NCBI GenBank assembly: GCA_037379345.1
Contig: CM074523.1
Location: forward strand, 4,100,525 to 4,164,524
Length of the DNA stretch: 64,000 nucleotides
Reading direction: 5' to 3'
From: Perna viridis
Taxonomy: Eukaryota
Position numbers and translations under genes: made by a program. Numbering within the stretch: position 1 is the first letter of the stretch; every line of letters starts with the position of its first letter. The notes under the pieces were generated by a model. The model was not told the origin of the DNA, made no database searches, and saw only the letters and a list, made by a program, of their open reading frames with translations. Positions 9,089-63,470 of the stretch are shown one piece after another.

Positions 9089-9190
9089 CTCATACTCCAA
9101 ACTAGACTCAGATGATGAAGTTTCACTGTGACAATTTGTAAACAATACACGTTTTGCCTCTCGTCTCCTCTTAGACATTAGTCTTCTTTC
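9089..9190 (-). CDS. Internal coding exon (102 nt, phase 0/0) of an unidentified large gene: ERRLMSKRRREAKRVLFTNCHSETSSSESSLEYE
   Basis: Minus strand aattttacag|GAAAGAAGACTAATG...TTGGAGTATGAG|gtttgt. Length is a multiple of 3, only frame 0 is open (the other two frames hit TAA early), and the peptide is protein-like (basic cluster then Ser/Glu-rich). Confidence 0.7.
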
Positions 9191-12100
9191 CTGTAAAATT
9201 ATACATGTATGTGATCAGAGTGAGGTCAAAACATCAATGGGCAACCATAACAGTCCTGTAGCCAGAATTTATTAGAGGGGTCAGAGGGGGTTATTTGGAC
9301 GAAACTTTTCAGTTTTTAATAGTGCTTTACAGATTTAAAGCTAGTTTTTTTAAAACAAAAAAGGGAAGTGTTCAATCCAAAAAAATACTACTGTTAACAC
9401 AAATGAAAATAATTATCAAACACAAAATTTGCACATTTACAGTAACTTAAACTGAATTGGAATTTCTGAGGAAAATATTCCTTATCACTATATACAATGA
9501 CTAAGTCTACTAAAATGTTTTCTTCAATTGTAGAATTGATATAGAGCTTTGATTGGAGCAGCATTACTGTTATGGTACATATGCCTTTGTTGCACTGAAA
9601 AAAAAAAGATTTTCTTTACAGATTGTTTAAGTCACTATGACTATGATAAAGCTGCAGGCTGAGTTTTAATGATTTTAACCCAAGTATTAAGTGTTTGATA
9701 GGGAGGTAAAAACATCACAAAACAGACTACAGAGGTGATCTCAGCAACATAGCAAGAATACCTCACAGATTACAGATCCTAGAAATCACTGCTAATCAAA
9801 TCCCCCTGATAATCTTTGGTAGATCTGGTACTAACATTGCTGTCTGCCCTGTCATGGCAAAGCAAAAACTTGGTAGCGGTTCGATGGAAAGCTTTTAAAA
9901 TTTCTAATTGTTCATTTCTTTAGAGTTACTCAAGAGGCATTATGATTATGTTCATACACAACTGCATTCTACAATCAGTTGCTGGGAAAACTTCAAAACA
10001 GCTTCACTGAGTAGTACACCACCAACAATTTGGCACCTAAATTCTGAAAAGGCAGGGAATCAGGATATTTTTAAATATCTAACAAAAATATAACCAACAT
10101 AATATATTTTAGTTTCCTAAGAAATGTCTTTTAAAAGACAAACTTATAATAAAAATGTAAAATGGCATCAATATTTAGGCCATTCCATTTTGTCCCAACA
10201 TTTTCATACATGCCCCACTAATGTTTCAATAAAAATATATCAATTTAATACCTAGAAGCTATCTTATTTATCAGATAGGAGACAATCATGCCGACTTTAG
10301 AGAAGGTGTGTACATTTGAAGACTGGTGCCTCTAATCTGATAATCTGATAAATCACCTGGTATCTGAATTATACACCTACAGACAAAGATTAACAGAACT
10401 GTAGGATACCATGATATCAATTCAATATTGTCTGTTTTAAAACCATCAACAGAGCATCTATATAAACACTGCAAAAAATGTGATAAAAAGACTCCCAATT
10501 AGTCATATCTGGTCTTAGCTTTCAAAAGTACATTACACAGCCATCCACAGTACAACAAGCAAGCCTTATTCAGAGGTCATACCTCAAGTTAGGAGTTTTT
10601 TCTCAAATCCTATTAGACCAATCTGATTGGTTATTAAGCCAAACTAGGAAAACTTGGGAGAAAATATCAATTAAAGAATTTTGTGGAAGCAGGACACAAA
10701 CCCATAACACATAAACATATATCTAGCCATCAATATTGAGAAAAATGACTGGTATATTCCCCAAAAATGGACAGTTTCTAATTTGTATTAATCATTACAG
10801 AGCCATATTATGTCACTATGGATATCTAATATCAAATTATACACCTGCTAATGAGTTAATGGATTAGTAATGATTCATTATCAAAAACATTTATTTTGGC
10901 AGTATTATCAGTTTCTACCATGAAATAGTGTAAATGATTGGTTGTTATACTGCCCCCTCTATATAGTTTAGCTTATCCCAATAATCAGAGAACACTGCCT
11001 ATGATAAACACATCCACGTTCATATATTTAAAAAAAGTACATGTATTTTCCTTATATAACTTAATCACAATGGTTTTGTTTCATGTCTATGCCATTCATG
11101 GGACCTTTGTTTTGAGAATAAACACTTTTTCATTTATATCATCTGCTCAATTCACACTTACTCTTTGTTTAATCTTTAGTAGATTGTAGAGACTTGACTA
11201 ACAATCACATTTTGCAGCCAGAACATAACCACATTAGCAAAGCCACCCAGAAACTTTTTTTACTTATAAAAATAAAGCTTTCTACCAATATTTTACTGAA
11301 GCTATTCACAAATCAATAATGTATGTCAAATCTTCAAATATACAGTGTAGGCCTAGAAGGCACACTATGGCAGTCTTAATTTATCATAGCTGCTCATCAC
11401 TTCCATAGCTTTTACTCAGACAGGATTTTGCTCATTGTCAAAAAAAAATAGGAATGGGGGAGGGGAGTGAGGTCTAGAAAAACACTGTCCTCTGTCTGTT
11501 CAGACAAAAATTTGTAACTTTGATCCTGAAATTTCAGAGTAGGAATTCCTATTTAAATAGGAAGAAAATCATGTCTTTTTACAACATTCATTTACAAGAT
11601 TCCAAATTGGGAAACACTCGATTGTAACATAGTCTTAACAACAGAAGTGAGCCAATGGAACAATTTGTGTACATACCAGACTGATCCCGTAAATGAAGGA
11701 ACATGAACCCCATAACCTTATGTACAATAGCTGTTTAGTACAGATCTAATTTCCCTGACAAAAACAAATATTAAGGTGAATTAGACAAAGCATGCAGTTA
11801 ATTGAATCTCCAGCAGTTTAGAACATCAGTAAATGAGAAAGCACTGTTCTACTTATAGAGAATACAGAAATATCAAAGTGAACCAATGATCTGTAATCAC
11901 TACTGTGGATACGAGGTCTAGTCGCATACTGGCAGGAGCATCAACATTCCTGATGTAGTGACAGAAAAAGGTACAGAATTAGGTTACAAGTCGTCAAGGA
12001 GCCAATTGTCAGTACAATTAATCCTGGGAGTACTAGACATTAAGAGACAAGAGCCTACTCAATTAGACTCGATTTGAGGTAAGTATTTCAAGAATTCAAC

Positions 12101-13220
12101 AAATTTATTGAGCTTATGGGCAATGAAACCAACCAATATGTATGGCTGTATGCAGTAAAATCTTTTGATATTGTAAATTCAGAATTTTTTGGCGTATCAT
12201 CTTGATACAACGATTTTGATTTTATCATATAACCACATCAGTTATCATGGTTATGTTGAAATTCATTAACCCAAGGTTTAATTATTACAATTTTGCAATA
12301 TTGTTTGAATTTGTAGTACCGGTCTCCTAAGTTAAAATCTGTAATAATAAATGCAATTGTTTTTTTTCTAATTGTTTCAATATAGGTCATATTATAAACC
12401 TTTTGCCATGGACAACAGATTGCACTTTGTCTAGAAACAAGAAAGGAAGTGCTATCAAACAAACAACGATAAAAATACAAAATGGCTACTAAACTTGTGC
12501 CTTGTGACCCAGAAACACAATAAACATTGCACACAGAGTATAATCATTAGCACTTAATACTAATTCTAACACTACAAGAATAAACTAAAATGCCTGCAAC
12601 TACTCAAATGTTAAGATGGTAAGTTTATTAACACAAAGTCAATTTAGTCCAGTGGTTTACCAGGTTAGGATGTAAAACAGATCAACATTTTGTACTTGGT
12701 CAGTAAATGTCATAATAACAACAGGAAACCTACAGATTATGCCAATATAAATGTTGACGGTAAAGTACACTGTTACTCAAGCATGGGTGAATCAATGTGG
12801 TGTTGTTACAGCTCACAAGTCAGGTCTTTCCATTATGTTAAATGCAATAATATTCTAATACTGTGTCAAAGAGAGCAACAGTACCAAGTGAACATTACAG
12901 AATGATAAATTAGTGCCTTGTTGCAGAACCATAACAAGCATGCATTTTTAAAATTGTCAAGATGTTAGCAAGCATACCATGCCTTGTGATATGATAATGT
13001 GACTTAACAACAGAGTCAGCGGGACATATCGTAAACTATTGAATTTGGGTTTTTTTGTGGTTAGTCTTGTAAAGTTAAAATTGAATTGTCACATTTTCTT
13101 CAAAGAACATTGTATATATAATATAATATGAGGAACAATCAGGATTTTAAATGGCATGAAAGTTGATTGATTCTAGGATGCACAACAAAATTACAGTGCA
13201 AAAATCCTCTTTACAGCGGT

Positions 13221-13459
13221 CAGTCTTTCCAAAGGTTCGTCGGACTGTTGGATATCACCAGTAAATATGAGATAGGATCAGAAAAAAATCTGGAACGCCA
13301 GACCGGAAGTCCGAAAATTTTATCTGATATTAGTCATTCTTGATTCAAGTCAAAACATATGGTAAGACTTGGTTCGGTCCTGAAAATAGTAATATGTCAT
13401 CACAAGACCGAATGTCCTAAAAAAAACCAAAAAAAAAAACTGTACCTTTGGAAAGACTG
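13221..13459. mobile_element. MITE with 16-bp perfect TIR and probable 6-bp TSD
   Basis: CAGTCTTTCCAAAGGT ... ACCTTTGGAAAGACTG. Flanks are agcggt / agtggt. Confidence 0.85.
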
Positions 13460-14349
13460 AGTGGTATATATGATTGATTGATTGATTGTAGTTTAATATC
13501 TCATATATTTCAGAACAAGAAAGTTTGAATAGTAAACTTGACGATATTCGAGCATACTCTAAATGAGAATGAACTACAATGCCTGAAGAGTAGTCAAATA
13601 TATACACATGTATATTTATATATACCATAGACAATTATTACAATAACTGTTCTCATCATTAACACTTAGGTTACAGAATAAGACCCTGGAGAAAATTAGA
13701 CATAGGATATAACTTCGCTGGCATGCTTATTAGAATAAACATAAACAAGAAATAATAAGTTTATATTTCATTTTCAAATTGCAGTGATTCACACAAAATC
13801 AGCATATCTTATTATAAGAAGGAGTAAAGCTTAGTGGGTACCTAGGTGGTTGTTCTAATGTTAAGGACCCAGAAGACATTGCCATTGATATCAGAGTGGA
13901 AAGATCTTACGATATAACGTTCATCTTTGAAATAATTCTAAAATTTAAACCTTATATTTAAATATATCATTACACACCTCTGATATTTATGTTATAGTAT
14001 ATTATATGCCATTCTCCCTTTTAGCCAAAATAAAAATCTGAAAATGAGAAAAAAAAACACACACACACACACAGATACCTAACATAAAGACATGTATTTC
14101 ATTAAAAAATCCCAAAAATTATTAAGTCACCAAACCACTTGTACACAAGCAGACAGAAAAATGCCTTGTGATATGACAATAAAAAGATATGCATATAAAC
14201 AGTACAAAACTTTACGTTTAAAAAAAAAACAAGTTAACTTGTCTATTGCAATTGATACCTGCTTAACTAACACTGCTACGTTAATGAAAACACAGCAATC
14301 CAATGATATATTTACCTAGCATCAAGTTTAAAGAAGCAAAAAAACTTAC

Positions 14350-14367
14350 CAATGTTGTTATTCTCAT
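14350..14367 (-). CDS. Candidate alternative first coding exon end: MRITTL, phase 0
   Basis: ggaaaATGAGAATAACAACATTG|gtaagt. A-rich start context, consensus donor, CpG-retaining patch upstream (~14570-14730). Confidence 0.5.
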
Positions 14368-15252
14368 TTTCCAATAAACCAAATTGAATTTTTTTCTAAC
14401 CGCAACAAAAGACTTTGGTATAATAAATCCATTTATATTACTTAAAATACTGTTTAAGCTTGACTTCTATAGAATAGAGGGTTTATGTAAACAGAAAGCA
14501 ATGTTATAGCCCTAAGTTTGCTCAGTGGCTGGGAGAAACTGAATGGATCCATGCTGAGGATATGGAAGATTTAACGATTTTACGATTCTTATGTTTTTTT
14601 CAATCGTTTTATCCCTTTTTTTGTCCAAGTCATTAGCTTCTATTAATAATCTTGGCTATTTATATCACAATAGTATCGTACTGTATTAAGAAACAGTCAG
14701 CGGTGGATCGAAGTCGGTGAAATCGAAAGGGAGTAAGTATATGTCAGATGGAATCTATTTCATTTGTAAGGTTTGAGAAAGAAAGTCTAATCATTTTATA
14801 GATATTCAATATTTCATTTCAGCAAAGATATTAAGAGTGATGGTTTTGTACTAATGTTTGGACAGTTGAAGGCTGTGAACCACAAGTTTATGGTGCAGAG
14901 AATCCCTTAATCACATTTTCCACAAAGTGAACGTAACATTTAAGTACAGCCAATATTTGACTGACTTATGACTAAAGTTGGACCTTTTATACAGAGCAGT
15001 AAGGATGGAATACACAGAGTTTAGAGATAATTTTGGTACAAAATGAGTAAGGAACAAATGCTGAATAGTCTATTTGAAGATTACAAAACACTTAACACAT
15101 AGATATAGTACACAGTGCTGGAAGTTAAACAAGAGCAGCAAGAAATAGTCATGTATTAACATACCAAGCATAAACAACAAACATGAACAGGGTACACAGG
15201 AAGTACTGGAAAGCTGTAGATACAGTATTAGTCATTAAGTGGGAGCCATACA

Positions 15253-15469
15253 CAAGGATTGAATGTCAGAATATTTTCCATTAGCTGAATTTAGCAAGTA
15301 CTGAAAATTTACACTCGGTAAATTGTAGTTTTTTGGGTAATTTCTGGACTTTACCTATATGACATATAGAATTTCAATAGCAAATTTTAGCAGGTGGAAA
15401 TAATTTCTACTAGCAAAATTGAATTTCAACTTGCATTTAGCAAGTATTTCTCCTTAAATTCGATCACTG
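15253..15469. mobile_element. Degenerate MITE with 6-bp TSD CATACA
   Basis: cataca|caaggattgaat ... aattcgatcactg|cataca. Confidence 0.6.
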
Positions 15470-16038
15470 CATACACTATATAACTTTATGTCTACTAGAA
15501 GCTGAGAAGTGTGAAAATACAGACAGTCTGACTGCAGTATTGCCCCTATTCTATGAGTTCAAGGAGGTAATAAAGAACAGAACTAAAAGTTGCACATGTT
15601 TAAACAATAATGGAATATTTCATTGGAGCTAGCATTCTTCAATGATTTTTCCAGTGTTCTCCTTGATATTTACAGATAGTATTCAATTTCAATAAAGCAT
15701 CACATTTGTAATGGACCCTAAGGGAAGTTCTTTTTGGAAAGCATCCTGGTAAAAATACAGCATTAGGGCAATATGGTGCTAAATTGCTCTTGGGAAGATC
15801 ACTGATTGTCCTTCAATAGTCTGCAATTAAAATTGAATACTAAGTGCAGACAAATTAAAATGTAAAGTTCTAATCTGCACACTTAGATTAGCCAAAGAAA
15901 CTTCAATTGCCTCCATATTATTGATTTTTTAGTGGTATGTTTCACATTTGTATACATTAACCAAAGAGGAAAGTTTTTCAGTTGTAGAATGTGTTGGAAA
16001 TGTTAACAATACAAATATTTCATTGTATCTTAATTTAA

Positions 16039-16433
16039 GAGGCCATCCATGTAAAAATCAGGCAGATCTTATGATATGGGTTGCATAGGGTAGATTTTAT
16101 ATCACTGAATGTTTTGTTCCAATGTAATGTATATATAATATGTATGTCAAATAGCATAAAGTTTGTTTTAAATCAACTATGGGTGGCTCAGAAACGATTT
16201 TTAAGTTCCCTAACAAAGCAACCTAATTTTGCTCAAATTAAAGAGTTATCTCCCTTTTTCCAATAAATTTCAATCCTTTCTATGTAATGTATCTCTCTTA
16301 AATCATTGCAGTTAATCAAAAGCCAACACCCAAGTTTGAAAAGGGTGCATTTGTGGTATGAAATTAGTGAATTTTCTTTAAAACAAAATTTGTCATGTGC
16401 AGCCCACTGCCTGGTTTTTGCTTGGACACCCTC
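16039..16433. mobile_element. TTAA-flanked MITE (Kolobok/piggyBac-type target site)
   Basis: ttaa|gaggccatccatgtaaaaatcaggcag ... ctgcctggtttttgcttggacaccctc|ttag, an imperfect ~27-bp TIR. Confidence 0.65.
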
Positions 16434-16479
16434 TTAGCACTTCCAAAGTTTTAATATCAAATTGATTGGTTAGCATGTA

Positions 16480-16862
16480 AGTGTAAGTGTAAGAATCAGG
16501 CAATATGTGAAAAATCAGAAACATGCATGTCAAAAACCCACCAATCTGACATTGTAATATCACCTGAAGATTCTTTCTCTATCTAAAAAAAGACCATTAT
16601 TTGATCTCTGCATCACTGGCTTTGCACAAAAAATTTTCAATAGAATCTTAGAAAAATGATGTTTTTGACAGAGTTATCTGCCCTTGAAATGTTCATTTAG
16701 TGCATTTCAATGAAATTGTAACTCAATAGTCCATCATGATATGGAAAATCTTGTTTGTTTTTCTTGATTCTGAAGGTGCAAATAGTCAAATTACAATATC
16801 AAAATGATGGTTTTTTTCATACCAAGTTTCACCCACTGCCTGATGCTAACAGGGACTAACAC
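16480..16862. mobile_element. Second related TTAA-type MITE adjacent to the first
   Basis: Left aagaatcaggca, right ctgcctgatgctaacagggactaacac|ttaa. The internal part is similar to 61700-61890. Confidence 0.55.
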
Positions 16863-17534
16863 TTAACCTCTAAGTAGCAAAATTGCAGCTACATAATCAA
16901 GGGGTTGAACATGAAATGGATGATAAAATGAAAATAAATTGATGATGGAATGAAAAATGGAAAGGGACGAAAGGATATTAGGGTCAACAAGAATTTCAAA
17001 TTGATGCTTAAGGACTGCTGTCAAGCATGCATACATACATTTGGTATATTAAATAATTTAAGGGTCAGCTTCACACTGAAGTTTAAGCACAGTACATTTA
17101 ATTTAAGTCTGGTCCAGTATATCATAATTTTGCAACTTAAACACAGTTTGGCAACAAAAATCTAAACTGAATCTGCTTCTAATAATCAATGATTATATGT
17201 AAATCAGAAGATATTTAGCATTATATAATTTTATGGGGCACTTGTACTTGCAGATTTAAGTTTCCATGGGGCCTATTGACCCCCTTCATTACATGTTATT
17301 GCTATGTTAATCTACAAATTGCATAACAGAAAATGTATGATGAAAAATCTGCTGCAGGATTACAAAAAGAAACATGTAATAAAACTCATTAAGCTATAGA
17401 ACTGGGAAACAAGTTTCTAGAAATTATCTAATGAAATAAGAACTTTGCTAAGAAAAAAATAATCCTCTATTCTTTGATAGTTAAAATAAAGTAATGCCAT
17501 TATGTAATCTTTGATAAAATATAATTTTACTTAC

Positions 17535-17543
17535 CACAGACAT
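17535..17543 (-). CDS. Candidate alternative first coding exon end: MSV, phase 0
   Basis: agaatATGTCTGTG|gtaagt. An in-frame TGA lies 13 codons upstream of the ATG. Confidence 0.35.
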
Positions 17544-20500
17544 ATTCTTTGCAAACACTGCCCTAATATAATCCTTAATTCACAAAACTGGCAAAATACT
17601 GCAATACAAATGATTTTCCATGACAAAAAAAAACAAAATCACAAATATCTAGGTCTCTTTCTATCATTCTACATTTTTCACCAAATCCATGACAACAAAA
17701 AGCATTTTTTACATCATTCTTTCTTTTCGTCAAGAGGAAATGATGAATAAGGCTGTCACTGTCAGGAATCTTTCTTTTCACTGTGCATCATTCTGATCAT
17801 CACACATGGTGACAAGAATGTCAGTCTATAGTCTGTTTCAGAATGGCTGAGTGCATCTGCCCAGATGTTATGATTAGGCTATTATCTAGGATGTGTATTG
17901 GGTTGGATGATATGATTAGGGATGTGTATTAGATGGCATATGATAAAACATAAACAGTTTCCTGAAGTACCATGTATTAATGTTTCAGGAATTATTCCAG
18001 CAATGGTATTTAGTAGATATATATATTTAGGTTGGTGTCAACTGAATATTGGTGCAGTGTCTAAGTCTTCCATTGACATAATTTTAGGAGTTGACATCTT
18101 GGGACACAAGTCCATCCCATATTTTACACTACATTGTCTTATTAATAACTATTACCATGGTTGTGTGCCCAAGTAGCATTGTTTTGATACAGCTAATGAG
18201 GAAAAGTATGCATTTACCCAAGGATCTGTATATATACATGATTCTACTTTCAGAATATTTACATGTACTGTAATGGTAAAAAAAAAAGTACATATTTAAT
18301 GCTTTATATTTTTTTAAATACAAGCAGAAACGTTGTGTTAGGTATGACAGTCATCAGAAAAAAATACCTATAGAATCATTTTCTCACTCAATATTTATAT
18401 CATTCTAATGTCCTATGTCATAGCTCCAAAGAAAGACACATTAATGTTCAAAAAGAGGAACAAAATATAGACTAGATCAGTATTTTAACAAACAGATTTA
18501 ATTTTTTCTCTCAAATGTGAATTCTCTAATGATTGGCTGTAAAATGCTGCTAATTAAGATGTAAATGTATTAAGTGTTAAGTCATTTTCGGAGACCCACG
18601 ACTGACTTTAGTTTGTACCTCAGAGGAGTGAGGTATGGAGGATAGTCAGCCCAGGGTTTCTGATAACACCGTGTTGACACAAATCTAATATTTGTATGTA
18701 ATTATAGAGAGCCATTAAAAATAGTTTATCTTTACAGCTGTTTTTACCAACCAATACTGTTTCACTACATTCTTGACCTAAAATACAATCCAGCTGACCA
18801 GATCCCAGGGCATCTAGCTTAAATGATTCAGATGTGTCTAATTGAAACAGTAAACATGAAAAAGATTCCAAAAATACCTCTAAAAAACCTAAATATTTTG
18901 ATGCTTCCAGGTGGTGTAGGTTCTGGTAACCACAATCTGTATTCAGATAGTAATTAAACTTAGGTATGGCTGCTCTAATGGACATTGACCAAGTTGCTAA
19001 TGATCCTTGGAATATTTCTCTACACACCACTGGGTACTGATATCTGTGGCAGAGATTTTTTGGGTCAGATGCCAATGTTCTGCATACTTTTCTGGACATA
19101 TTGATTCTTTCAGTAAGGCCTGGTTTTAATTATTTCCACATTCCAGATGGTAAAATTAAGATTTTCAAAATGTGACCTTTAGCAAGGACGTTAAAATCTT
19201 TATTTTGAACATAGAGAGTGGAGAAATAGTTTAAATCTAAAACATAGTATGCAAGAGAATTGATTTCTCCTATGAAATCTTTTGAAAACTTAGAAGAAGG
19301 ACATCTCTCACAGAAATTAAATCCTGTTCCAAATGGATAAAAATTCTTAAGTTAAGATTATCTCCCCTTTCAAAAAGTTCTGATGATCTTCCCTTTCATA
19401 CTTCATGTGATATACTAAATATCCAGCAGGAATGGTAATCAAAAAAAAAAAAAAAATGCAATGACTTATTGTAAAGTGTTGATTATTTAAGTTACTGTAA
19501 ATAAATGCAGTCCTTATTCTTAAACCTGATATAATAGAGTACAGACATCTTGACCCAAAACATCAGCTGATGCTGGTAAACAATATCCAAAGTCACTGTA
19601 AACAACATGATTATACAATGGTTAAGATTATTAGTCTAATCAGTGGAATTAACCATGTCTCCATGAAAGAAGGGGGATAATTAATATGTTCTGTTTGGTA
19701 ATTATGAACAAGTGCCTGACCACAATAATTTATAATCTAAAAGATACTTTCAAGTATGCATAAATTTCATTATATACAAAGTATAAATATAATCTATGAA
19801 AATTGAACTCTCAGTGTCAGGTATGTTGATATTAAGAGTATTCAAAACAAAAATGGTCAACAATGGTTTTAACTTGATTGTAAACAATTGTATTAATTGG
19901 CAACCAACGGTAGAGGAACAATTTACCAGTTATTAACAAACAACATGAACTTGCAAGCAATGTTATGCCAGGTACATCCCAACTCACACAGGAAGTTTAT
20001 ATCAGACAGCACCCAAAATGGTTTACAATATATGTCCAGGCCATCTATATAAAACCAAAATTAAATATGAAATCAACCCGTCCATTGGGAAATGTAATTC
20101 TATTTACAACAATTTAGTCTATTATTCCACATAGTCAAAAATAGCGAAGTCCAACAAAAGTTGATTTCTTACAGCACCCAAAATCACTTGTGACATTGTG
20201 CCCAATCTATATAAAGCTACACACCAGATTAGAAATCAATCCATTTGATGGGAGTCAAGATAAGCCGGATGGAAAAGGTAATTCCAATATATCATTCATC
20301 TGCCACAATCAGACATCAAATGAATATATTTCTTTTGAAATACCCCAAATTACATTTCTGTTAAGAATGTGAAAATAATGTTAATAATGATAGGGAAATA
20401 GACAAATGGACCAAAAAACTAACTGGCCTTTGTTATAATGGGCAAAACAGGTCTTTTAAAGCAAAGCAGAGACAATTAATCATCAAAGCACATTTCACTG

Positions 20501-21182
20501 AAACAATGTAACATACAAATTTCTGATATTGAGTTCATCAAATTATTCCAGTTTTTATACAGATGCAAGCTGTTATGTAATAAAGGATTAATGTATCACA
20601 AAAATCTACCAGCATCTGCTACATCACCTGAATCGTAGAGAATATAAACATACAAGATTTATGTAATTCTCAGGGAACATTTTGCACATTTTATGTTGTT
20701 TTTGTAATCCAGTCTTGTTTTTTCTATAACCTTTTAACCTTCAACCCATAATACAATGTCAATAAAATGCATGCAATAATCAATGCCTGCAATTTTTAGA
20801 AAATATAACTGCATGTATTCATGTAACTGTACAACATATCTGATTTCCAAACTCTCAATTTTTTTTTATTTCCCCCAATACTTGACAGGTCTTTTAAATG
20901 ACAATCGTTTGATCACTTAAATGTCCTCTTAATTTCCTGCCAATCTTTATCCATTTTAAGAATGTCTCTTAACTTATTGTGGTTGAGGAAACTACAATAT
21001 GAAAGCCACACATACTATGCTAATCACCAATTGACATATCATAAAATACAATCAAGCAACATATTGTTGTATGTGCAATGTAAAGCTGAGTATAATTAAA
21101 AAAATTAATACTGCAAAATTATACATGGCTGGTAATATTTTTCAGAGCATTATGACCCTTGCTAAAATAAAACAACCAAAAC

Positions 21183-21863
21183 ATGAAGTTGCATGTGTTG
21201 CCATGCTTTGCATTTACACTCCCAATCTTGGAGTTGCATGTGTTGCCATGCTATGCATTTACACCCCCAATCTTGGAGTTGCATGTGTTGCCATGCAATG
21301 CATTTACACCCCAAATCTTGGAGTTGCATGTGATGCCATGCTATGCATTTACACCCCCAATCTTGGAGTTGCATGTGTTGCCATGCTATGCATTTACACC
21401 CCCAATCTTGGAGTTGCATGAATTGCCATGCTATGCATTTACACCCCCAATCTTGGAGTTGCATGAATTGCCATGCTATGCATTTACACCCCCAATCTTG
21501 GAGTTGCATGTGTTGCCATGCTATGCATTTACACCCCCAATCATGAAGTTGCATGTGATGCCATGCTATGCATTTACACCCCCAATCTTGGAGTTGCATG
21601 TGTTGCCATGCTATGCATTTACACCCCCAATCTTGGAGTTGCATGTGTTGCCATGCTATGCACTTACACCCCCAATCTTGGAGTTGCATGTGTTGCCATG
21701 CTATGCATTTACACCCCCAATCTTGGAGTTGCATGTGTTGCCATGCTATGCATTTACACCCCCAATCTTGGAGTTGCATGTGTTGCCATGCTATGCATTT
21801 ACACCCCCAATCATGAAGTTGCATGTGTTGCCATGCTATGCATTTACACCCCCAATCCTGGAG
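21183..21863. repeat. 45-bp minisatellite, ~15 near-identical copies
   Basis: ttggagttgcatgtgttgccatgctatgcatttacacccccaatc. Confidence 0.98.
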
Positions 21864-21930
21864 ATTACTGCGATGAAATTCAAACGGACAGACAAGGTGA
21901 TTTAAATATACCACCCATTCATTGAGTTAA

Positions 21931-50945: not shown

Positions 50946-51474
50946 GAGGTGGCAGTCACAGAGTTTGCATTATGTTATATAAGTAATTAACAAATACAAC
51001 ATAAAAAATGAATTCAATGACTAAATTTCACTTTTTTTCCACTGTTTAAACATGATTGAACAGGATTTTTCACAAAACCATTTCCGTTACTTATTACTGC
51101 CTGGGTTGTATTAGCAGCATCAGACACACAAATTTATGATGCCATATATTGATTCTAATCAGAACCCTAAAAAGAATTGGATATAACTACTAATCCTGTA
51201 AGATCTGGATCTTAAAATGTTCATTATGGACTAATAAACATTTCTGTACCAAAAGGTTTGTAGAAGTTTTGGGATCAACAAAGTTAGAAAATGATGATAT
51301 CACACCTGCCAACAAGTGAACATCAAAGGGATCTTAACCTTTGATCTTAGGGGAAGGACAGGTAAACAACAAGCAAGGTGTGAAAGGAGGGATCACAGAC
51401 AGGACTCGTTCACAGTTTACAGTGGACACTAACTTAAGTAAAGTCTGAGTAGCAGACTCTACACAAAGACATAC

Positions 51475-51531
51475 CCTAGTTGTCAGAATTAAGTAAATAA
51501 GAAATACAACTAGGAATATTACAAAAGGCAT
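51475..51531 (-). CDS. Weak candidate first exon end: MPFVIFLVVFLIYLILTTR (hydrophobic), phase 0
   Basis: First 19 codons of ORF 51334..51531, followed by AGG|gtatgt. Confidence 0.2.
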
Positions 51532-54359: not shown

Positions 54360-54661
54360 TTGAGTTGTCATATGTTGTCTGTCAACCCCAGGTCCACATG
54401 ATTGAGTTGTCATATGTTGCCAGACAACCCCAGGTCCACATGATAGAGTTGTCATATGTTGCCAGACAACCCCAGGTCCACATGATTGAGTTGTCATATG
54501 TTGCCAGACAACCCCAGGTCCACATGATTGAGTTGTCATATGTTGCCAGACAATCCCAGGTCCACACGACTGAGTTGTCATATGTTGCCAGACAACCCCA
54601 GGTCCACATGATTGAGTTGTCATATGTTGTCAGACAACCCCAGGTCCACATGATTGAGTTG
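54360..54661. repeat. 42-bp minisatellite, ~7 copies
   Basis: tgagttgtcatatgttgccagacaaccccaggtccacatgat. Confidence 0.97.
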
Positions 54662-54787
54662 ATTTTTCTTAAAATACTTCATATAAAAAATATAACATTT
54701 TTTTGCTTTCAGGGAACCAATCATAACTTTCTGATTTTCTAACCCTGGAGCATTAAACTGAAATTAGTAAAGTTGGGAATATTTTTA

Positions 54788-55260
54788 CAGTAAAACCTGT
54801 ATAAACTAAACACTGAATAACCAATCACCTGTCTAAACTGAACACCGAATAACCAAACACCTGTATAAACTGAACACCGAATAACCAAATGCCTGTCTAA
54901 ACTGAACCCTGAATAATCATAAACCTGTTGAAAATGAATCCTGACCTGAATAATTATAAACCTGTTTAAACTGAACCCTGAATAACCAAACACCTGTCTA
55001 AACTGAACCCTGAATAATCAAACACCTGTCTAATATGAACACTGAATAATCAATCACCTGTATAAACTGAACCTTGAATAATCAAACACCTGTTTAAACT
55101 GAACACTGAATAATCATAAATCTGTTTAGAATGAACCCTGAATAATCATAAGTCTGTTTAAAATGAACCCTGAATAAACAAACACCTTTCTAAAATGAAC
55201 CCTGAATAATCAGTAAAATCTAAAATGAACAAATATTTCAGACTTAGAAAGGTTACACTG
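54788..55260. mobile_element. TA-flanked Tc1/mariner-type MITE containing ~13 x 32-bp tandem units
   Basis: ta|CAGTAAAACCTGTATAA ... TTAGAAAGGTTACACTG|ta. Unit is acctgtNtaaactgaacNctgaataaYcaaac. Confidence 0.8.
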
Positions 55261-55543
55261 TAAAAAATGGAACTTTTAAAATATTAAAGGTGTCTTGGTA
55301 TTTTAGTCTTAACCCAACTAGATGGAGAGTTCTAGTTTTAATACAAGGTAAATTACTATAATTTGAGGACAGTTCCCAGTTCAACTCTGACTTGAATAGG
55401 TGTTCTAAAGAAAATTTAAAATGCAAATTTGATCCTGACCCTTTAACAGTCCTTGTTTCAATATTAAATAAAAAAACCCTACCCTCTTGTCACTCAAACT
55501 CAAAGTCAGTCCTCATCTCAACTTATATCCTGAATAGGTAGAA

Positions 55544-55708
55544 CAGTGGCATATAAAAAAAGAAGAGGTGTGACCCAGGGTTCCTCAGAAAAAGGGGATG
55601 CTAGGACATCATATGCCATTTTTTTGTAGAATTTATACATGAAAATGACAAATTTTCCAATGAAAAGAAGGTGCCCACTCCTGCACCCCTCCTCTGGATC
55701 TGGCACTG
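55544..55708. mobile_element. Degenerate CAGTGGC...GCACTG MITE
   Basis: cagtggcatat ... cccctcctctggatctggcactg. Confidence 0.5.
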
Positions 55709-55934
55709 TAGACATGTGTTCATTTAATGCAATATTTAACAAAAAATACTTAAAGTATTATGACCTTTACGATTGGTACTTAGTATGTAACTAATAATGG
55801 ATTACAGAGTATAATCCGTTCTTTCTGTCTATCTAGACCAAAAGTCTACAGATCAGGCTCCAATCACTCTCCTATAAGGACAAATATCAAATATAATATA
55901 ACTTTGTAAGTCATTAGAATCAGTTATATAGATC

Positions 55935-55992
55935 ACAAGCCTGACTGATGTGGGATTAGACTACAAGCCTGACTGATGTGGGATTAGACTAC
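55935..55992. repeat. 28-bp tandem duplication
   Basis: acaagcctgactgatgtgggattagact x2. Confidence 0.95.
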
Positions 55993-56617
55993 ACTATTTA
56001 ACTTTCAATTGATAGGTTAGTTAGAGCCAAGGTTATGACCTTTTATCATTACAACAAAACTTCAGCAAATTTTTTTTTTTCTCAAAGGAAATTTCATTTC
56101 TTCCAAAGAATAGAAAAGACCATTCCAATTTTTATCAAACACATTAACTGACACTCTCTAGAAGAAGGACTTTGTAAGGTAAACCAGAGCAAAGGTTTCA
56201 TTTGTCTTGATTGATTGACTGATCATAGGTTTAACATCCAAATGTCAGGTATTTCATGCATGTCTGTTTGAAGAGGATTAACCAATCAAACATTCCCTGC
56301 TTTGCACTAGACTATCTGGAACAGGGTTTTGAGGTCATTTACTCAATTTGTACTTGATATTTGTGATATCTGCAGCAAAAAAGCATTTATACAAGTGTTT
56401 ACATTAATCAATATAAAATATTAAAGTGTTATAAAAAACTGCTTGGCCTTAGAGTTAAACTCACATTAATGCCTTCTTAACTTATAATCTCAAGTCAATG
56501 GTAATTCCTACACCCTCTAGGTACAGGTCTCTGGTCTTAATCCAAAGCCTATTATTGTAATGCACTGAGTTAAGAAATCTTACAACCAGCGTGTACAAAA
56601 TTAACCTTTTATCTTAC

Positions 56618-56620
56618 CAT
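56618..56620 (-). CDS. Weak candidate first exon ending in the start codon (M), phase 0
   Basis: aactcATG|gtaaga. Confidence 0.2.
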
Positions 56621-56798
56621 GAGTTCAATTGATCAGTTTATAATCTCCAATGCCTTTACCTTCATCGGACAAATGGATAAGTTTTTGTAGTTATATACAC
56701 TTTAATGTTATAATATTACAAAACTGGGTATTCAAGTATTTGGTGCCAAACCCTCATAGTTTCATATATATAAAGAAGGTTTTACATAGACTTTTAGA

Positions 56799-57830
56799 AC
56801 TTACACAGACACAACATCTACATGCATCACTTACTTCTCCTGGCTTACGCGGACTCGACATCTACATGCATCCCTTACTTCTCCTGGCTTCCACAGACTC
56901 AACACCTACATGCATCCCTTACTTCTCCTGGCTTACACAGACTCAACATCTACATGCATCCCTTACTTCTCCTGGCTTACAGACTTGACACCTACATGCA
57001 TCCCTTACTTCTCCTGGCTTACAGACTTGACATATACATGCATCCCTTACTTCTGGCTTACTCAGACTTGACATCTACATGCATCCCTTACTTCTCCTGG
57101 CTTACTCAGACTTGACACCTACATGTATCCCTTACTTCTCCTGGCTTACAGACTTGACATCTACATGCATCCCTTACTTCTCCTGGCTTACTCAGACTTG
57201 ACACCTACATGCATCCCTTACTTCTCCTGGCTTACTCAGACTTGACACCTACATGCATCCCTTACTTCTCCTGGCTTACAGACTTGACATATACATGCAT
57301 CCCTTACTTCTCCTGGCTTACAGACTTGACATATACATGCATCCCTTACTTCTCCTGGCTTACTCAGACTTGACATCTACATGCATCCCTTACTTCTCCT
57401 GGCTTCCACAGACTCAACACCTACATGCATCCCTTACTTCTCCTGGCTTACTCAGACTTGACACCTACATGCATCCCTTACTTCTCCTGGCTTACAGACT
57501 TGACATATACATGCATCCCTTACTTCTCCTGGCTTACTCAGACTTGACAATCTACATGCATCCCTTACTTCTCCTGGCTTACTCAGACTTGACATCTACA
57601 TGCATCCCTTACTTCTCCTGGCTTACTCAGACTTGACATATACATGCATCCCTTACTTCTCCTGGCTTACTCAGACTTGACACCTACATGCATCCCTTAC
57701 TTATCCTGGCTTACAGACTTGACATATACATGCATCCCTTACTTCTCCTGGCTTACAGACTCGACACCTACATGCATCCCTTACTTCTCCTGGCTTACAC
57801 AGACTTGACACCTACACACATCCCTTACTT
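56799..57830. repeat. 43/45-bp minisatellite, ~23 copies
   Basis: ctacatgcatcccttacttctcctggcttac(tc)agacttgaca. Confidence 0.98.
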
Positions 57831-58109
57831 CAACCTGTATATAAAGACCACCTGTTTTATGTAACCATGAATTTGATCTCCACTGGATGGTCATTTAAGA
57901 CAGGTTAGAATGTAGTTTTGCTGATATCATTTTATGAGAATTCTAATGCTGAAACTGTAAAATATCAGAAGAATATGAAGTAATGTAAAACTATTTTTGT
58001 GTGTAACAACTTTTCGGGTTGATCAAAATCTTCTAATTTTGCCAGTTCTTAATTTTGAAAGTTTCATTAAACCATAAGTTTCCAATTAAAATTGATCATT
58101 TGTTTGGAC

Positions 58110-58470
58110 TGTACACTGAAAAAATACAATTGGTATCCCATGGACAATAGTCAGGTGCACCAAGAGCGCATCCCCACCTAAAATGTACATTGGAAAGTAC
58201 AACTGGTACCCCATGGACAATAGTCTGCTGCACCCAGAGGGCATTTCCACCTAAATGTACATTGAAAAGTACAACTGGTACCTCATGGACAATAGTCAGG
58301 TGCACCCAGAGCACACACCCACCTAAAATGTACACTGAAAAGTACAACTGGTGCCCCATGGACAATAGTCATGTGCACCCAGAGTGCATTCCCACATAAA
58401 TGTACATTGGAAAGTACACCTAGTACCCTATGGACAATAGTCAGGTGCACCCAGAGTGCACCCCACTTAA
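58110..58470. repeat. ~73-bp minisatellite, 5 copies
   Basis: atggacaatagtc near 58140, 58213, 58285, 58358, 58430. Confidence 0.93.
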
Positions 58471-60403
58471 AATAAGAATTTAGAAACTTTTTTTGGAAGA
58501 AATCTTAATTTCTTATAATCTTAAATAAATGGTAATTCCTACTACACCCTCTAGTGACAGATGCCATACTAATGCTACCCCCAAAAAATGTTCTTAATTT
58601 ACTTCGTTTGGCATTTAATTCTATTTATGCCCCCACCCCCCCAACATGAAATCCTGCATCCCCCCTTTTGATACCTCTACAGTACCTAATATTTCAATTA
58701 TGATGTATAGTAACGATTAGCAAAAATCATGAAAAGTAGTAACAAACACGAAGAGAAAACAATTTATGTAATTCTTTGAGGTCAAATAAAAAATATCATA
58801 ACCTTCTTAAATGATAATGGAAATGTTTATGACATAAATTATTTATGAATCAACAGGCAAAAGATCACTTTTACTTCAAAAAAGACCTTAATGTAAAATT
58901 CTTTTCATTCTCCAAAACAAAATTACAATCTTTGATATTGAAATCACATCAAAACTTCGTTTCAGTGTCAAACCACAAGACAAGATAGATTAATCCTTCC
59001 TATTCACTTATTTCCTCTTTGTGACAATCAGTTGTATGCTTAAAGGATTAACGTATTTTTGAGAGAAGACAAAATAATAAATACTCAAATCCTGTAAAAT
59101 CTGTGTCAATAAAGAGCATTTATCAATGGACTGCCGTAACATTTCCGTTAAATACAAAATGATAGTAGAATAGGAAACATTGCTGTAATGTGTAATAGTA
59201 TCTTAAACTGTTACTGTTATCCTCATTTTTCAGACCATCTCAAGTAGAAGTCCTTCACTTACAAATAATGTATAGAAAGAACTTGTCTGTAAAAGTTCAT
59301 TCTAGATTTTCATGCCTGCCCTCAACATTGTATGGCTAAAGCACTATTAAATTCTAGATTGATTCCCCATTAATTCAATGTAAAATGTTTTTGAAAATTA
59401 AAATAATTTCCCTACCTTCTTATCCCATTTTTTTCCTTGCTGGTAGCAGGAAACAAGACTATTATAATTTTGGTCTAAGAGAACTGACAAAAGTCAAATA
59501 TAATCCTCTATTTATTACCACCAATAGAAGCATAGAAATCTATTAAAAAAAGTGTAACTAACTTATGGACGGACAATATAGCAATATGATTGCAATATAG
59601 CCCCAACTCATTAGTGGGGGTATAACATTCAAAAATAAGTGTACTGTTTATAGAGCATATTGTCGTTCAATTAATTTCTAAAAGAACCAATATTAAGCTA
59701 AGATTACATACAGCTCTCTTTCAGTAGGCATTTTGCTGACATCAGGAATAAGGTGGAATTATTTTTTAGCTCATAAAGAACTCATTTAATATGAATTGCA
59801 ATTTGACACCTAATTAGTCAATTGAGATATTGAAGCAGACCAAAATTTGCAACTGCAGACAAATCTTAACTGCCAAAGATGTAAACACAAGGAAAAATAA
59901 CAAATTCATTTTATATGGCAACTTAACACCTAATTTGTCAAATCAAGTATTGAAATGATACGAGTTATTGGCACCTTTACAAATACACCATCCTATATTG
60001 CGTATTAAATCAACACCTTCCGACACTTTTCACGTCATTGTATTTTTTTGAAGTTGAAATCAAATGATAATTAATGCAAATTACTGAGTAAATATTACAT
60101 GACAAGCAAAATGTTATTTATGTAAGTTTTGGTATTTAGACAGATCTTTTCATAATCATTGATGGGTTGAGTTTGTCAAATTGTTACTCTACATTTGGGT
60201 ATCATTAAACTTGTGTCTTCAAAAATACTTATGAGATTTGCTCATTGTATATTTGTGCTTGTTTTGATCAAAGCTCTGTGAATATGTGATCAATTTTAAG
60301 TAACTAATTTTAAAAACATATCTGAAATCATTTGTCTTCCCCTTTCCCATCCCTTAACTCATATCCCCCACTCTCTCATTTATAAACCCCTTATTGATCA
60401 GTA

Positions 60404-60432
60404 ACTTACCTGAAAAAGATAAAAAAAGGAAG
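60404..60432 (-). other. Juxtaposed acceptor/donor (recursive-splice-site-like)
   Basis: Minus strand cttcctttttttatctttttcag|gtaagt, junction at 60410/60409. Confidence 0.5.
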
Positions 60433-61082
60433 TTTCCACTTTCAAAGCTTAATTTCTGTTAAAACATGCAGGCTTCAGCATTACAAGGCAAATTTTTAAC
60501 AAACACAGCACAATGCTGCACTATTTACCATCTAATAGAACTAATTTACAATAGAAATCTCCCATGGAATGATCAAGTATTCCAATAATGTTTACAGGAC
60601 CATATATCTGCAAACTCTATGTTTTCCTTTGTAAAAAATATACTTTCAAGTCGGACAAAACATCATGTTGACCAAAGACATTAAAGATTGAAAAACCAAC
60701 AGGACTCAGGAATTATAACACTACATTGTAATTTAAAAAGTAATGACACGCTTCAAAAAGAACAACTGATTTGGACATCTACATGTGATTTGAGAAAGTG
60801 ATGGGGTGGGCATGAGAATACAAGTAATGTCATGTAATATACATAATTCCTACTGACACGCTTCTATATCTTCCATCAATCACAACTATCGTAATGATTG
60901 TATTCATGAAAGAGCTAAGTCACAGAAAATAAACAACCAGAGTATAGATATTTAATACAAGTCAATTCTTAGATTCTGGCAAAATGAGAAAAATCTGAAA
61001 CATGCCATAAAAAACCTAAGGATCTGATAATATACTTTCATTCTGAAACATGCTATAAAAAAACCTAAGGATCTGATAATAT

Positions 61083-61619
61083 TAGATTATTTACTATTTT
61101 TTCAACGAGATGAGCATGAGAAAATCCCGTGAGTTGAAAAAATATTTAATTACTGTTTTGCTGAATTGTAAGGCATTAGTTTTCTTTTATTTTTAATAGT
61201 CCTGACCTAAATATGTAAGTTTTATAAGCGCTGCAAAATTTCCTTTCGGGACTATTTTTCGGCAATGTGACATCACATGTTGTGCAGTTATGATCCATAT
61301 TATTTGAAAAAAAATCGGTTCACTATGACAGTCGCGTTTAAAATTTGTGGAATAATTTTGGAATTTATTCATTCTAATCGGGTAAGTTACTGTATTTAAT
61401 CATTTTCCATTGTAGACTAGAAAATATTGCCACAAATTAGCCATTATTTCATACGCAGTAAACAAACAGATGGTTATTTGGGTCATCAAATATTCCTATG
61501 CTGTTGCTTGTATGTCACGCAAGGACATAGAAACTAGCGATAATTTTCATTCTCACTTGACTGGCGTGAGATTGAAAATTATTGTATAGCAAGATCAAAG
61601 GGATTCTAAACAAAATAGC
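61083..61619. mobile_element. ~540-bp CpG-rich insertion within a 49-bp tandem duplication
   Basis: GATAATAT duplicated at 61075-61082 and 61620-61627. The uninterrupted paralogous site is at 61021-61043. Confidence 0.75.
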
Positions 61620-61699
61620 GATAATATACTTTCATTCATGGAAATTGTTTCTATTTAATTTCTGCATAACTTGATATGGTCAGAAATTTATTATTTCAA

Positions 61700-61892
61700 T
61701 GTTTGAAAATTGAGGTTTTTGACAGTTATCTGCCTTTAAAATGTTCATTTGCTGTGTATCTCAATAAAAATATAACTAAAATAACCAAACTGAGATGGAA
61801 AATACTGTCTTAATTTGTTGATTCTGATGGTGAAGATAGTAAAATTACATTAATGGCTCATTTGATACCATGTTTCATCCTCTGCCTGATAC
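61700..61892 (+). mobile_element. Fragment of the 16480-16862 MITE family
   Basis: tttttgacagttatctgcc...aaatgttcattt...ttgattctga...tacca.gtttca.cc.ctgcctgat is shared with 16660-16845. Confidence 0.7.
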
Positions 61893-63452
61893 TTTCAAAT
61901 ACTTGTACTTAATTCTAAAAATGAATATTAGTGAAGTATCGCGCTATTCATATTTGAAGTATAAATGTTTAATGGTGAAGTGTTCTAACAAACAAACTTA
62001 AAATCAGAACAAATAATGGGTCGAGACCGGATCAATTTCTTAATGAATAGACAGCCATGCCACTGGCGCCAAGTTGTTCCACAGTTAAGCTGTTAACTCG
62101 ACACCCTAACATCAAGAAAAACTATGATAAGTCTTATGTTGTTCTATACATCAAAAAAAGGAATTGGTATATCTGTATTAATAAAAAAAAACATGAGATG
62201 GTTGTAATTAACCTAATTAAAATTAAATTAAAAAAGAATGGCATTAAGTTGCAATAATAAATATGTGCAATAACTGATTTTAGTATTAGCACAGGGAAAC
62301 CTGTCAAATCCAAACCTTAGAAAATTGCAAATTTTGTCACATGACACAGGATTAGTGGAAATAGCAGAAATAAACTAATACTAATTTAGAGCCCACAAAA
62401 AAGTGTCTGCTTATAAAGAGGTCTGGAGTACTCATAATCCATGAAGAAGGTGCATAAACAAAAACGTGAAATTTGCTTTTTTATACAAAATTTGTTTATT
62501 TGTCAGTGGCCATTTTCATAAAAATCTCAAAATGAGAATTTCCTCATATTCTTCCTTTACTTAAGTATAGACCAATCAAATTACTTGAAATTGAAGATAT
62601 TTTATTAAACTTAAAGATTTGAGGAAAATCTCAATATGAAATATGCTACATGTTATTAAACTTGGCTGTAAAACTCTATTGCATGATATATCACTTTCCC
62701 ATTTGACCATAGAAATAAACCAGCAATGATAAACTATCATTGATAACAGAAAATGTAAATTTTAGAGCCTGCTCTATTTCAGCCCTTAAATTTTGAAATA
62801 TAAGCACTGGTTCTACTGTTATATACTACATGTATATCATAATCCTGTCTCTGTTATATTGTTTGACAAGCAGGAAGAGCAAGGTCAAAAGTTCAAATAT
62901 TATAATTTACAAATTAGTCTACATTGGTATGGAAATGGTCCTATTAATCATGGAGACAGTTCATAATATATAGCAATATAAAGAAAGGCTACCAGAGTCA
63001 ACTTGATAAATTGCATCATAGCAGCTGAATGCTCATGAATTAAAACTTAAAATACCCATGAAATCTTCCTCAGCTAGACCATGGCAAAGGAAGACAGACC
63101 ATGGCTATGGCTTAAAGTTCTATAGTTTTTTTTCACAAATCAACTGAAACTGCAGTCATAGAACACAGTTATTCGTCTATATTTCTTCTTTTTAATGTAA
63201 CCTGCAGTCCACCAACTATTTGAGAACTAAAATAACTTAAAACACCAAACCATTACCAAGCAGAAACATAAAGTCTTTGACGGATTTAATACTGTATGCT
63301 TACGGCAAATTAAAATAGATTGATATATAGAAGACCTTTTTTGAACTATTATTTTCATCTCGCCTATTTCTTTAAAACCCATATCATAAAGGAGGTTATA
63401 GTGTCAAATCTTTCTAGCCACAAGATATCAAATTATAACCTTTAGCCCTCAC

Positions 63453-63470
63453 CACAAAATAAACAATCAT
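63453..63470 (-). CDS. Candidate alternative first coding exon end: MIVYFV, phase 0
   Basis: acataATGATTGTTTATTTTGTG|gtgagg. A few CpGs just upstream (63500-63610). Confidence 0.35.

Follow-up and report, generated by a model that had tools for sequence, protein, structure and literature searches.

The window analysed here (64,000 nucleotides of the Perna viridis genome, contig CM074523.1) is most probably the long 5' intron of a single-copy NCKAP5-like gene, and the eight small ATG-donor units previously described in it as alternative first exons are probably for the most part, or even wholly, products of chance. The earlier note had proposed a gene with multiple promoters and interchangeable short phase-0 N-termini; this idea does fit the gene, since ortholog isoforms swap their N-termini and matching units occur in the genome, but the listed array does not. 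What likely remains, judged from sequence comparison, is an ordinary multi-promoter design in the NCKAP5-like gene of a mytilid mussel. Had the array of eight to nine micro-coding first exons held up, it would have made a striking molluscan parallel to plectin; it is unsupported, however, and the remainder is modest, with several short alternative N-termini already implicit in RefSeq isoform lists.

Identity and layout of the gene

Based on matches to Mytilus NCKAP5-like proteins, the exon chain of the gene maps collinearly on the minus strand and includes a 991-amino-acid exon with 65-66% identity to four Mytilus proteins as well as an exon starting with DVLERK that is 94% identical to its Mytilus counterpart. 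A conserved exon of the gene has one match in the genome, as expected of a single-copy gene.

9191..64000, minus strand: in-window part of the intron between exons A and B, a putative 55.7 kb in full, containing all 13 donors discussed below
9089..9190, minus strand: exon B, coding, in phase 0 on either side, with an ATG of its own at 9178-9176, a skippable and thus variable N-terminal exon
1..9088, minus strand: in-window part of the intron downstream of exon B, reaching as far as the first shared exon, which is off-window
L002:7788-7651 (left of the window), minus strand: first shared exon, starting with DVLERK, with a Mytilus match
Starting at L005:1797 (left of the window), minus strand: second shared exon

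Residues 58-310 of the M. edulis ortholog are 44-49% identical to vertebrate NCKAP5 across ca. 250 residues (E 1e-48 to 5e-44), and exons of the Perna viridis genome match the same Mytilus stretch, showing that the N-terminal region of the NCKAP5 family is present. Human NCKAP5L tracks microtubule plus ends via SxIP motifs and binds CDK5RAP2 with its residues 1-135 (PMC4613824). The mussel gene resembles vertebrate NCKAP5 and NCKAP5L/Cep169 in the conserved N-terminal region, and its 991-residue exon has four matches to the SxIP-type pattern; the motif is short, EB1 binding would be a prediction from the pattern, and the function in molluscs is putative. Unlike the mussel gene, the vertebrate NCKAP5 matches contain Pfam PF15246, which was found in none of eight mollusc orthologs and in none of the scanned exons of the gene, for all of which the Pfam scan returned no credible family, and the mammal and bird isoforms listed mostly share one N-terminus. 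None of the 120 matches listed out of 183 is named NCKAP5L except for a fish protein called "nck-associated protein 5-like".

Exon B and the ortholog-supported alternative N-termini

Exon B (102 nt, open in frame 0, flanked directly by TTTTACAG upstream and by GTTTGT downstream) is indeed real by orthology to Mytilus NCKAP5-like proteins, with 18 of 32 residues agreeing with positions 27-57 of M. edulis X1. It had been presented as a shared, constant exon, but 13 of the 18 Mytilus isoforms listed do without it. Four of the five isoforms that carry exon B begin at its own Met, the counterpart of the in-frame ATG at 9178 that the earlier note does not mention, and in the fifth this Met is preceded by exon A and four residues, the same spacing as ERRL here. 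The exon A ortholog of M. edulis joins its exon-B ortholog, and this sole upstream coding exon in the Mytilus isoforms examined maps outside the window, the very situation that the earlier note had named as refuting its array, seen here by orthology and not in reads. All of these isoforms are database gene models, and the listing covers 15 of the 32 members in the main Mytilus cluster, so that unlisted isoforms may carry other N-termini. A metagenome scan with the open frame of exon B gave 591 pattern matches, none of them confirmed as a relative, and a short-protein search returned nine fragments, the seven viewed of these nine being single exons read from DNA.

L012:984-919 (donor 919 bases past base 64000), minus strand: exon A, 22 codons from ATG to AAG/GTAAGT (slash, splice boundary)
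L002:4912-4874, minus strand: D1, likely alternative first exon, score 40 against 13 for the next of 62 same-length sense units
L003:6382-6359, minus strand: D2, likely alternative first exon, score 31 against 14 for the next of 83 same-length sense units
L004:615-595, minus strand: D3, weaker candidate first exon, score 19 against 10 for the next of 96 same-length sense units

Exon A is likely the ortholog of the 22-residue Mytilus N-terminus, scoring 32 where the next of 4559 stop-free donor positions scores 20, though 17 bases ahead of its ATG there is an acceptor-like site, and it may be an internal exon. Exons A, D1 and D2 are each the clear best match among thousands of donor positions. 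These three ATG-donor units match alternative N-termini annotated in Mytilus; one sits past the right end of the window and the other two to its left, at distances of 5 kb and 14 kb. Orthology to gene models indicates that alternative coding 5' exons join in the same phase, A and B to the DVLERK exon and D1 and D2 to the next one. Orthologs swap their short N-termini onto these two exons, both of which lie off-window to the left. Homologous junctions carry short alternative N-termini in mussels, scallops, oysters, clams and snails, and the same is true of gene models of amphioxus, acorn worm and starfish.

We also considered a candidate for an exon C within the window (MDLHSKK, AAG/GTAGGG, 38426..38446, minus strand), which had escaped the donor filter of the earlier note and is the best of 130 same-length sense units against M. 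trossulus X4. Its score of 14 is not significant because antisense units reach 19.

The eight ATG-donor units

All 13 minus-strand G/GTRAG sites reported upstream of 9190 were recovered at their positions, and eight of these donors are preceded in phase 0 by an in-frame ATG with no stop in between, giving the reported peptides.

14350..14367, minus strand: MRITTL, likely chance, donor score 6.0, RNA depth 0.03-0.09 in its bin
17535..17543, minus strand: MSV, strongest donor of the eight (score 10.1), without ortholog match
33037..33045, minus strand: MTS, likely chance, donor score 0.6
37029..37040, minus strand: MLAL, within a dispersed repeat with at least 52 genome matches, donor score 3.8
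37172..37225, minus strand: MDQR..., 18 codons, donor score 8.9, without ortholog match
42832..42885, minus strand: MACN..., 18 codons, likely chance, donor score 2.6
56618..56620, minus strand: M, an ATG/GT site and thus positive by construction, donor score 8.1
63453..63470, minus strand: MIVYFV, likely chance, donor score 5.9

While the sequences of this supposed array exist, it is highly improbable that most of them are real micro-coding first exons with their own promoters that are spliced to the acceptor at 9190. Such a role would account for the lead of phase 0 on the minus strand, where phases 0, 1 and 2 are found at eight, two and one of the 13 donors, and the probability of eight or more positives is 0.018 given the last codon (4.1 expected), a value uncorrected for the choice of filter. 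But the plus-strand control, which the earlier note had called for, gives five, two and one of nine donors with phase 0 again in the lead, though three of its five positives are trivial ATG/GT sites compared to one of eight on the minus strand. The chance rate of about 25% assumed for phase 0 was too low, since any G-ending position shows a background of 35-36% (26-28% for phases 1 and 2) that rises to 50-54% after TG, and the G/GT filter therefore favours phase 0. Without conditioning, the probability of at least eight of 13 becomes 0.042, and given the last two bases 0.080, both likewise uncorrected for filter choice. In 60 runs of an order-3 Markov model, we obtained on average 15.9 donors (at least 13 in 51 runs) and 5.5 positives (at least eight in 15 runs), so the number of donors is at or below chance expectation. 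The claimed enrichment thus holds as a count of eight in 13 without being confirmed as a clear excess, and a small leftover excess in the fraction (eight against 4.1 expected) is not fully explained. More generally, the case shows how a G/GT filter biases ATG-phase tests toward phase 0.

The donors themselves are atypical. We built a donor matrix from 16 sites placed from protein matches, including D1 and D2, and found A at position -2 in 15 of these ortholog-anchored donors but in none of the eight listed units (Fisher P 1.2e-5); the same holds against the six anchored donors that fit G/GTRAG, all with A at -2 (P 3.3e-4). These six are all that the filter of the earlier note would pick from the 16. 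The donors at 17535, 37172 and 56618 nevertheless score within the range of the anchored ones (6.3-12.8, leave-one-out). First coding segments as short as 1-7 residues do occur in this gene family, including an M-only N-terminus of O. edulis that is joined to the DVLE exon, and the M. edulis exon-B ortholog does accept an in-frame coding exon from upstream. However, only one of the five exon-B isoforms listed has upstream coding sequence, which is the one mapping off-window, and the eight peptides match no ortholog N-terminus compared (at the protein level, with 14 as the highest ungapped score when Met is counted), speaking against the conservation of these units; lineage-specific first exons would lack any ortholog.

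No RNA data set is listed for 8400-11000, which counts neither for nor against. We also compared bases 1-20000 with a contig set and with 19-23% of each of three raw RNA-seq runs. None of the 15 joints listed out of 97 touches 9190, 14350 or 17535, in an alignment that is dominated by repeats and with samples that may not express the gene. Of the aligned raw reads, 93-94% continue into unlike sequence (repeats), and the 9190 junction is not resolved.

Regarding strand asymmetry, an apparent minus-strand excess of GTRAG (104 versus 50) proved to be driven by repeats and shrank to 45 versus 38 after masking. Unmasked strong donors (score of at least 9) number 12 sense versus 23 antisense in the A-B intron and 25 versus 8 in the intron with D1-D3 (one-sided P 0.002). 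The sense strand of the A-B intron is thus not enriched in strong donors, though a strand asymmetry of donor counts is also seen upstream of the gene (18 versus 32).

Possible non-coding feeders of exon B and recursive-like sites

Alternatively, exon B could be fed mainly from within the window by non-coding pieces that the earlier note left unlisted or took as negatives (donors at 53817, 52746, 10583, 13978) or via a recursive-like site at 60410, or it could itself be a first exon, which is compatible with the existence of exon A and seems rather unlikely as an overall account.

60404..60427, minus strand: recursive-splice-like site, pyrimidine tract and CAG/GTAAGT at 60410, recognised by motif

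Phase would then be irrelevant because translation begins at 9178, as it does in the four Mytilus isoforms that open at this Met. The five best in-window upstream donors, 60410, 53817, 10583, 52746 and 13978 (scores 10.7-13.3), are indeed all without a phase-0 ATG. Yet strong donors with a score of at least 11 are equally frequent on both strands of the A-B intron (four sense, four antisense). In Drosophila and vertebrates, recursive splicing uses a strong acceptor with a directly following donor in introns above 24 kb (PMC8758631); 60410 is alike in its strong acceptor directly adjoining a donor and in its long intron, and is known here from its motif. Two of the 11 strong acceptor-like sites in the 5' introns of the gene run directly into GTAAGT against 0.003-0.02 expected, though the pyrimidine threshold for these sites was picked after they had been seen. 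Genome-wide, the recursive motif shows no excess, having 66 matches where a version with scrambled tail has 63 and the pattern in reverse 69, while a stricter pattern gave four against one. Our literature search found no oyster study of recursive splicing. A second recursive-like splice site lies at L002:6702.

Proposed working of the gene and comparison to known systems

Returning to the multi-promoter design, several promoters would drive short phase-0 first exons onto one of two shared acceptors. Exon A would join exon B or bypass it to the DVLERK exon, exon B could itself start translation, and D1, D2 and perhaps D3 would join the exon after DVLERK, so that the 46-residue DVLERK segment is dropped. 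Which N-terminus a protein carries, and how long its conserved N-terminal region is, would thus follow from the choice of promoter.

UGT1A and the clustered protocadherins, too, combine a constant region with variable 5' exons, which in their case are large, duplicated and paralogous and code for entire domains. The NCKAP5-like units differ from these in comprising 1-34 codons with, by inspection, no shared sequence beyond Met. A closer parallel is plectin (PLEC), in which a dozen short variable first exons are spliced into exon 2 and several short, unrelated first exons likewise give different N-termini to a large cytoskeletal protein (PMC8468861). Unlike plectin, orthologs of the NCKAP5-like gene use two or three shared acceptors, its variable exon B doubles as an internal cassette, and it has three to five supported coding first exons, not eight to nine, with putative promoters and isoform functions.

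With exon B, the N-terminus would gain an RVxF-type motif as well as a cluster of basic residues, PP1 docking being a prediction.

9140..9154, minus strand: KRVLF codons, match to the RVxF-type PP1-docking consensus, binding predicted

It is a speculative and quite improbable extension that promoter choice acts as a signalling switch in which exon-B isoforms dock PP1 via RVxF, D isoforms lose both RVxF and the first conserved N-terminal segment, and both long 5' introns are removed via the recursive sites at 60410 and L002:6702. In a literature search with most subscription journals outside its coverage, we found no paper for NCKAP5 with bivalve, unrelated material only for NCKAP5 with alternative promoter, and nothing joining NCKAP5, PP1 and RVxF. 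The RVxF consensus turns up by chance in ca. 25% of proteins (PMC4794898). The pattern [RK]x0-1[VI]{P}[FW] is matched in Perna exon B and in the exon-B-type N-termini of all five Mytilus and both scallop proteins, compared to none of four from oysters, and the exon B motif is the sole RVxF in the Mytilus proteins scanned. This conserved motif offers a cheap test of the function of one swapped N-terminus.

Identity of the gene and its variable exon

With 100 kb added on each side of the window (G000:C13:4100525-4164524), 264 kb were examined, in which leftward open frames carry on a minus-strand gene whose exons map in order. Its 991-aa exon shares 65-66% identity with four Mytilus proteins and 28-40% with the remaining bivalve matches, several of which are called Nck-associated protein 5, which makes a mytilid mussel the likely source of the DNA. 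Residues 58-310 of the Mytilus edulis ortholog are 44-49% identical to vertebrate NCKAP5 among the 120 of 183 matches listed. A conserved exon of the gene has one genome match, and Pfam PF15246 was not detected in eight mollusc orthologs. The gene is a mussel NCKAP5-like gene and, judged by orthology to database gene models, does seem to swap short N-termini using exons mostly outside the window. Such swapping is already implicit in RefSeq isoform lists, and among the papers listed by literature searches none dealt with this gene in bivalves. UGT1A and protocadherin clusters follow a different design from the N-terminus swapping of this gene. The variable first exons of plectin are of similar design (PMC8468861).

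Exons and candidate exons of the 5' region (L002 to L006, flank pieces left of the window; L012, beyond its right end)
L012:984-919, minus strand: exon A, likely variable exon of 22 codons from ATG to AAG|GTAAGT, matching the 22-residue Mytilus N-terminus
9089-9190, minus strand: exon B, coding
L002:4912-4874, minus strand: D1, candidate alternative first exon, score 40 (runner-up 13 among 62 sense units of equal length)
L003:6382-6359, minus strand: D2, likewise, score 31 (next 14 of 83)
L004:615-595, minus strand: D3, likewise but weaker, score 19 (next 10 of 96)
L002:7788-7651, minus strand: DVLERK exon, first shared exon
L005:1797 (start), minus strand: second shared exon, next after the DVLERK exon

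Exon B aligns to residues 27-57 of M. edulis X1 (18/32 identical) and holds an in-frame ATG at 9178. Among 18 Mytilus RefSeq isoforms compared (15 from the main cluster, which has 32 members, and three from two small ones), it is present in five and absent from the other 13, so that the exon which the earlier note took for the shared one is a variable exon instead. Four of the five exon-B isoforms start at its own Met; M. edulis X1 has the 22-residue exon and four residues ahead of that Met, and four residues precede it here as well. Exon B also encodes KRVLF (9140-9154, minus strand), matching the RVxF consensus for PP1 docking (PMC4794898). This match is the sole one in the Mytilus proteins scanned and is kept in 5/5 Mytilus and 2/2 scallop exon-B-type N-termini, while absent in 4/4 oyster ones; because the consensus is loose, we offer PP1 docking by exon B only as a hypothesis.

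Candidate first exons matched to orthologs

Across the minus strand of these 264 kb, ortholog N-termini were scored against each GT/GC position that was stop-free at phase 0. Exon A, 919 bases past the window's right end, scored 32 (next 20, 4559 positions), and other same-length ATG units on both strands reached at most 12 against its N-terminus. The N-termini matched by D1 and D2 feed the second shared exon in orthologs. The 7-residue N-terminus of M. trossulus X4 has a weak in-window candidate at 38426 (score 14 vs 19 for the antisense control), and those of clam, oyster, scallop and abalone that were compared yielded no clear match. In isoform sets of scallops, oysters, abalones, clams, limpets, snails, amphioxus, acorn worm and starfish, several alternative N-termini join at homologous junctions; most of the whale and bird isoforms examined have one N-terminus in common.

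The sequence shows that the exons are homologous, that exon B has an ATG of its own and that several units match ortholog N-termini. Several promoters would drive the short N-termini: exon A would join exon B or skip past it, exon B could itself initiate translation, and the D exons would enter one exon later, which would shorten the conserved N-terminal region by 46 residues. Residues 1-135 of human NCKAP5L are both necessary and sufficient for CDK5RAP2 binding, and its SxIP motifs confer microtubule plus-end tracking (PMC4613824), functions that by analogy may carry over to the mussel gene.

A pyrimidine-rich acceptor-like site (L012:1001-1060, minus strand) lies 17 bases ahead of exon A's ATG; exon A could be an internal exon preceded by a non-coding first exon. 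The intron holding D1-D3 contains strong-donor micro-units at L005:4416 (MLKFFK) and L005:8749 (MFKFQ), both on the minus strand. Of the sense units of its length, the latter matches a clam N-terminus best, but it does not exceed the antisense control. At the homolog of the third exon's acceptor (L006:6365, minus strand), further short oyster and scallop N-termini enter in gene models; the preceding intron is phase 2 here.

The proposed array of micro-coding first exons

The earlier note had read eight minus-strand ATG-donor units (14350, 17535, 33037, 37029, 37172, 42832, 56618 and 63453) as an enriched array of alternative first exons. A script recovered all 13 G|GTRAG sites that it lists upstream of acceptor 9190, along with the identical set of eight phase-0 peptides. 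Phases 1 and 2 gave an ATG at 2/13 and 1/13 of these donors, and the plus-strand control gave 5, 2 and 1 of 9 for phases 0, 1 and 2; ATG|GT sites, positive by construction, make up 3/5 plus-strand positives vs 1/8 minus-strand ones. The G|GTRAG filter is itself biased towards phase 0: the phase-0 rate is 35-36% at any G-ending position (26-28% in other phases) and 50-54% after TG, the ending of 7/8 minus-strand positives. Reaching at least 8 of 13 has a probability of 0.042 without conditioning, of 0.080 once the two final bases are fixed and of 0.018 once the final codon is fixed, and 60 order-3 Markov simulations averaged 15.9 donors and 5.5 positives, with at least eight positives in 15/60. 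From the simulations and probabilities, the supposed enrichment comes down to a slightly high positive fraction among an unremarkable number of donors. Repeats explain most of the minus-strand GTRAG excess.

None of the eight peptides matches an ortholog N-terminus among those compared, so at the protein level conservation in relatives was not borne out. Against 16 reference donors placed from protein matches (matrix leave-one-out 6.3-12.8), the units score 0.6, 2.6, 3.8, 5.9, 6.0, 8.1, 8.9 and 10.1, a comparison by which units 56618, 37172 and 17535 may still be genuine. A at -2 occurs in 15/16 reference donors vs 0/8 units, G|GTRAG fits just 6/16 reference donors, and unit 37029 lies inside a dispersed repeat matched 52 or more times in the genome. 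Sense vs antisense counts of unmasked donors with scores of 9 or more are 12 vs 23 for the A-B intron, 3 vs 3 for the one after it, 25 vs 8 for the D1-D3 intron and 18 vs 32 for the sequence upstream of the gene. An array, if there is one, would sit in the D1-D3 intron, where 9/25 strong donors have a phase-0 ATG, near background. The sites are thus real, but with no ortholog match, atypical donors and a positive fraction just slightly above chance, the listed array is probably chance; multi-promoter N-terminus swapping fits the gene by its ortholog isoforms, though with mostly off-window exons in place of those listed. Strong minus-strand donors without an in-frame ATG at 53817, 52746, 10583 and 13978 may mark UTR exons or non-coding first exons that feed exon B.

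Recursive-like sites, repeats and neighbouring features

The 264 kb hold 23 YAG|GTRAG sites. For two of them, 13-14 of the 14 bases just before the site are pyrimidines, and these two lie one each in the longest and second-longest 5' introns of the gene:
60410, minus (sense) strand: recursive-like site, YAG|GTAAGT
L002:6702, minus (sense) strand: recursive-like site, YAG|GTAAGT
They are two of 11 strong acceptor-like sites vs 0.003-0.02 expected, with the threshold set after seeing the sites. The 13-letter motif shows no genome-wide excess (66 vs 63 and 69 for controls; further control patterns 48 and 66), and we regard the pair as a local lead from sequence.

On bases 1-20000, a contig set and three raw RNA-seq runs were repeat-dominated; raw reads reached depths of 0.03-0.09 in the 14350 bin and of 0.35-0.70 in the 17535 bin. 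None of the 15 joints listed of 97 touched 9190 in these repeat-dominated reads, from samples that may not express the gene. The repeat at 16009-17342 has very deep two-strand coverage from divergent copies elsewhere. A dispersed repeat at 36921-37062 and 19109-19324, with 52 or more genome matches, has copies that match in both orientations at shared loci. Tandem arrays, 34 rows in total for the window, include 56800-57831, 21187-21863, 4758-5455, 29037-29535 and 40051-40434, with units of 44, 45, 172, 100 and 63 bp.

Within an intron of the gene, a plus-strand open frame of 313 aa (L005:71-1009) has a weak, below-cut-off reverse-transcriptase match (PF00078, E 7e-4) and is likely a retroelement fragment. 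Neighbouring genes on the plus strand include a C-type lectin domain (L009:4613-4840, E 3.5e-14) and kinase exons (L011:5230-7168, Pfam kinase E 1e-4), which may resemble a TGF-beta type I receptor.
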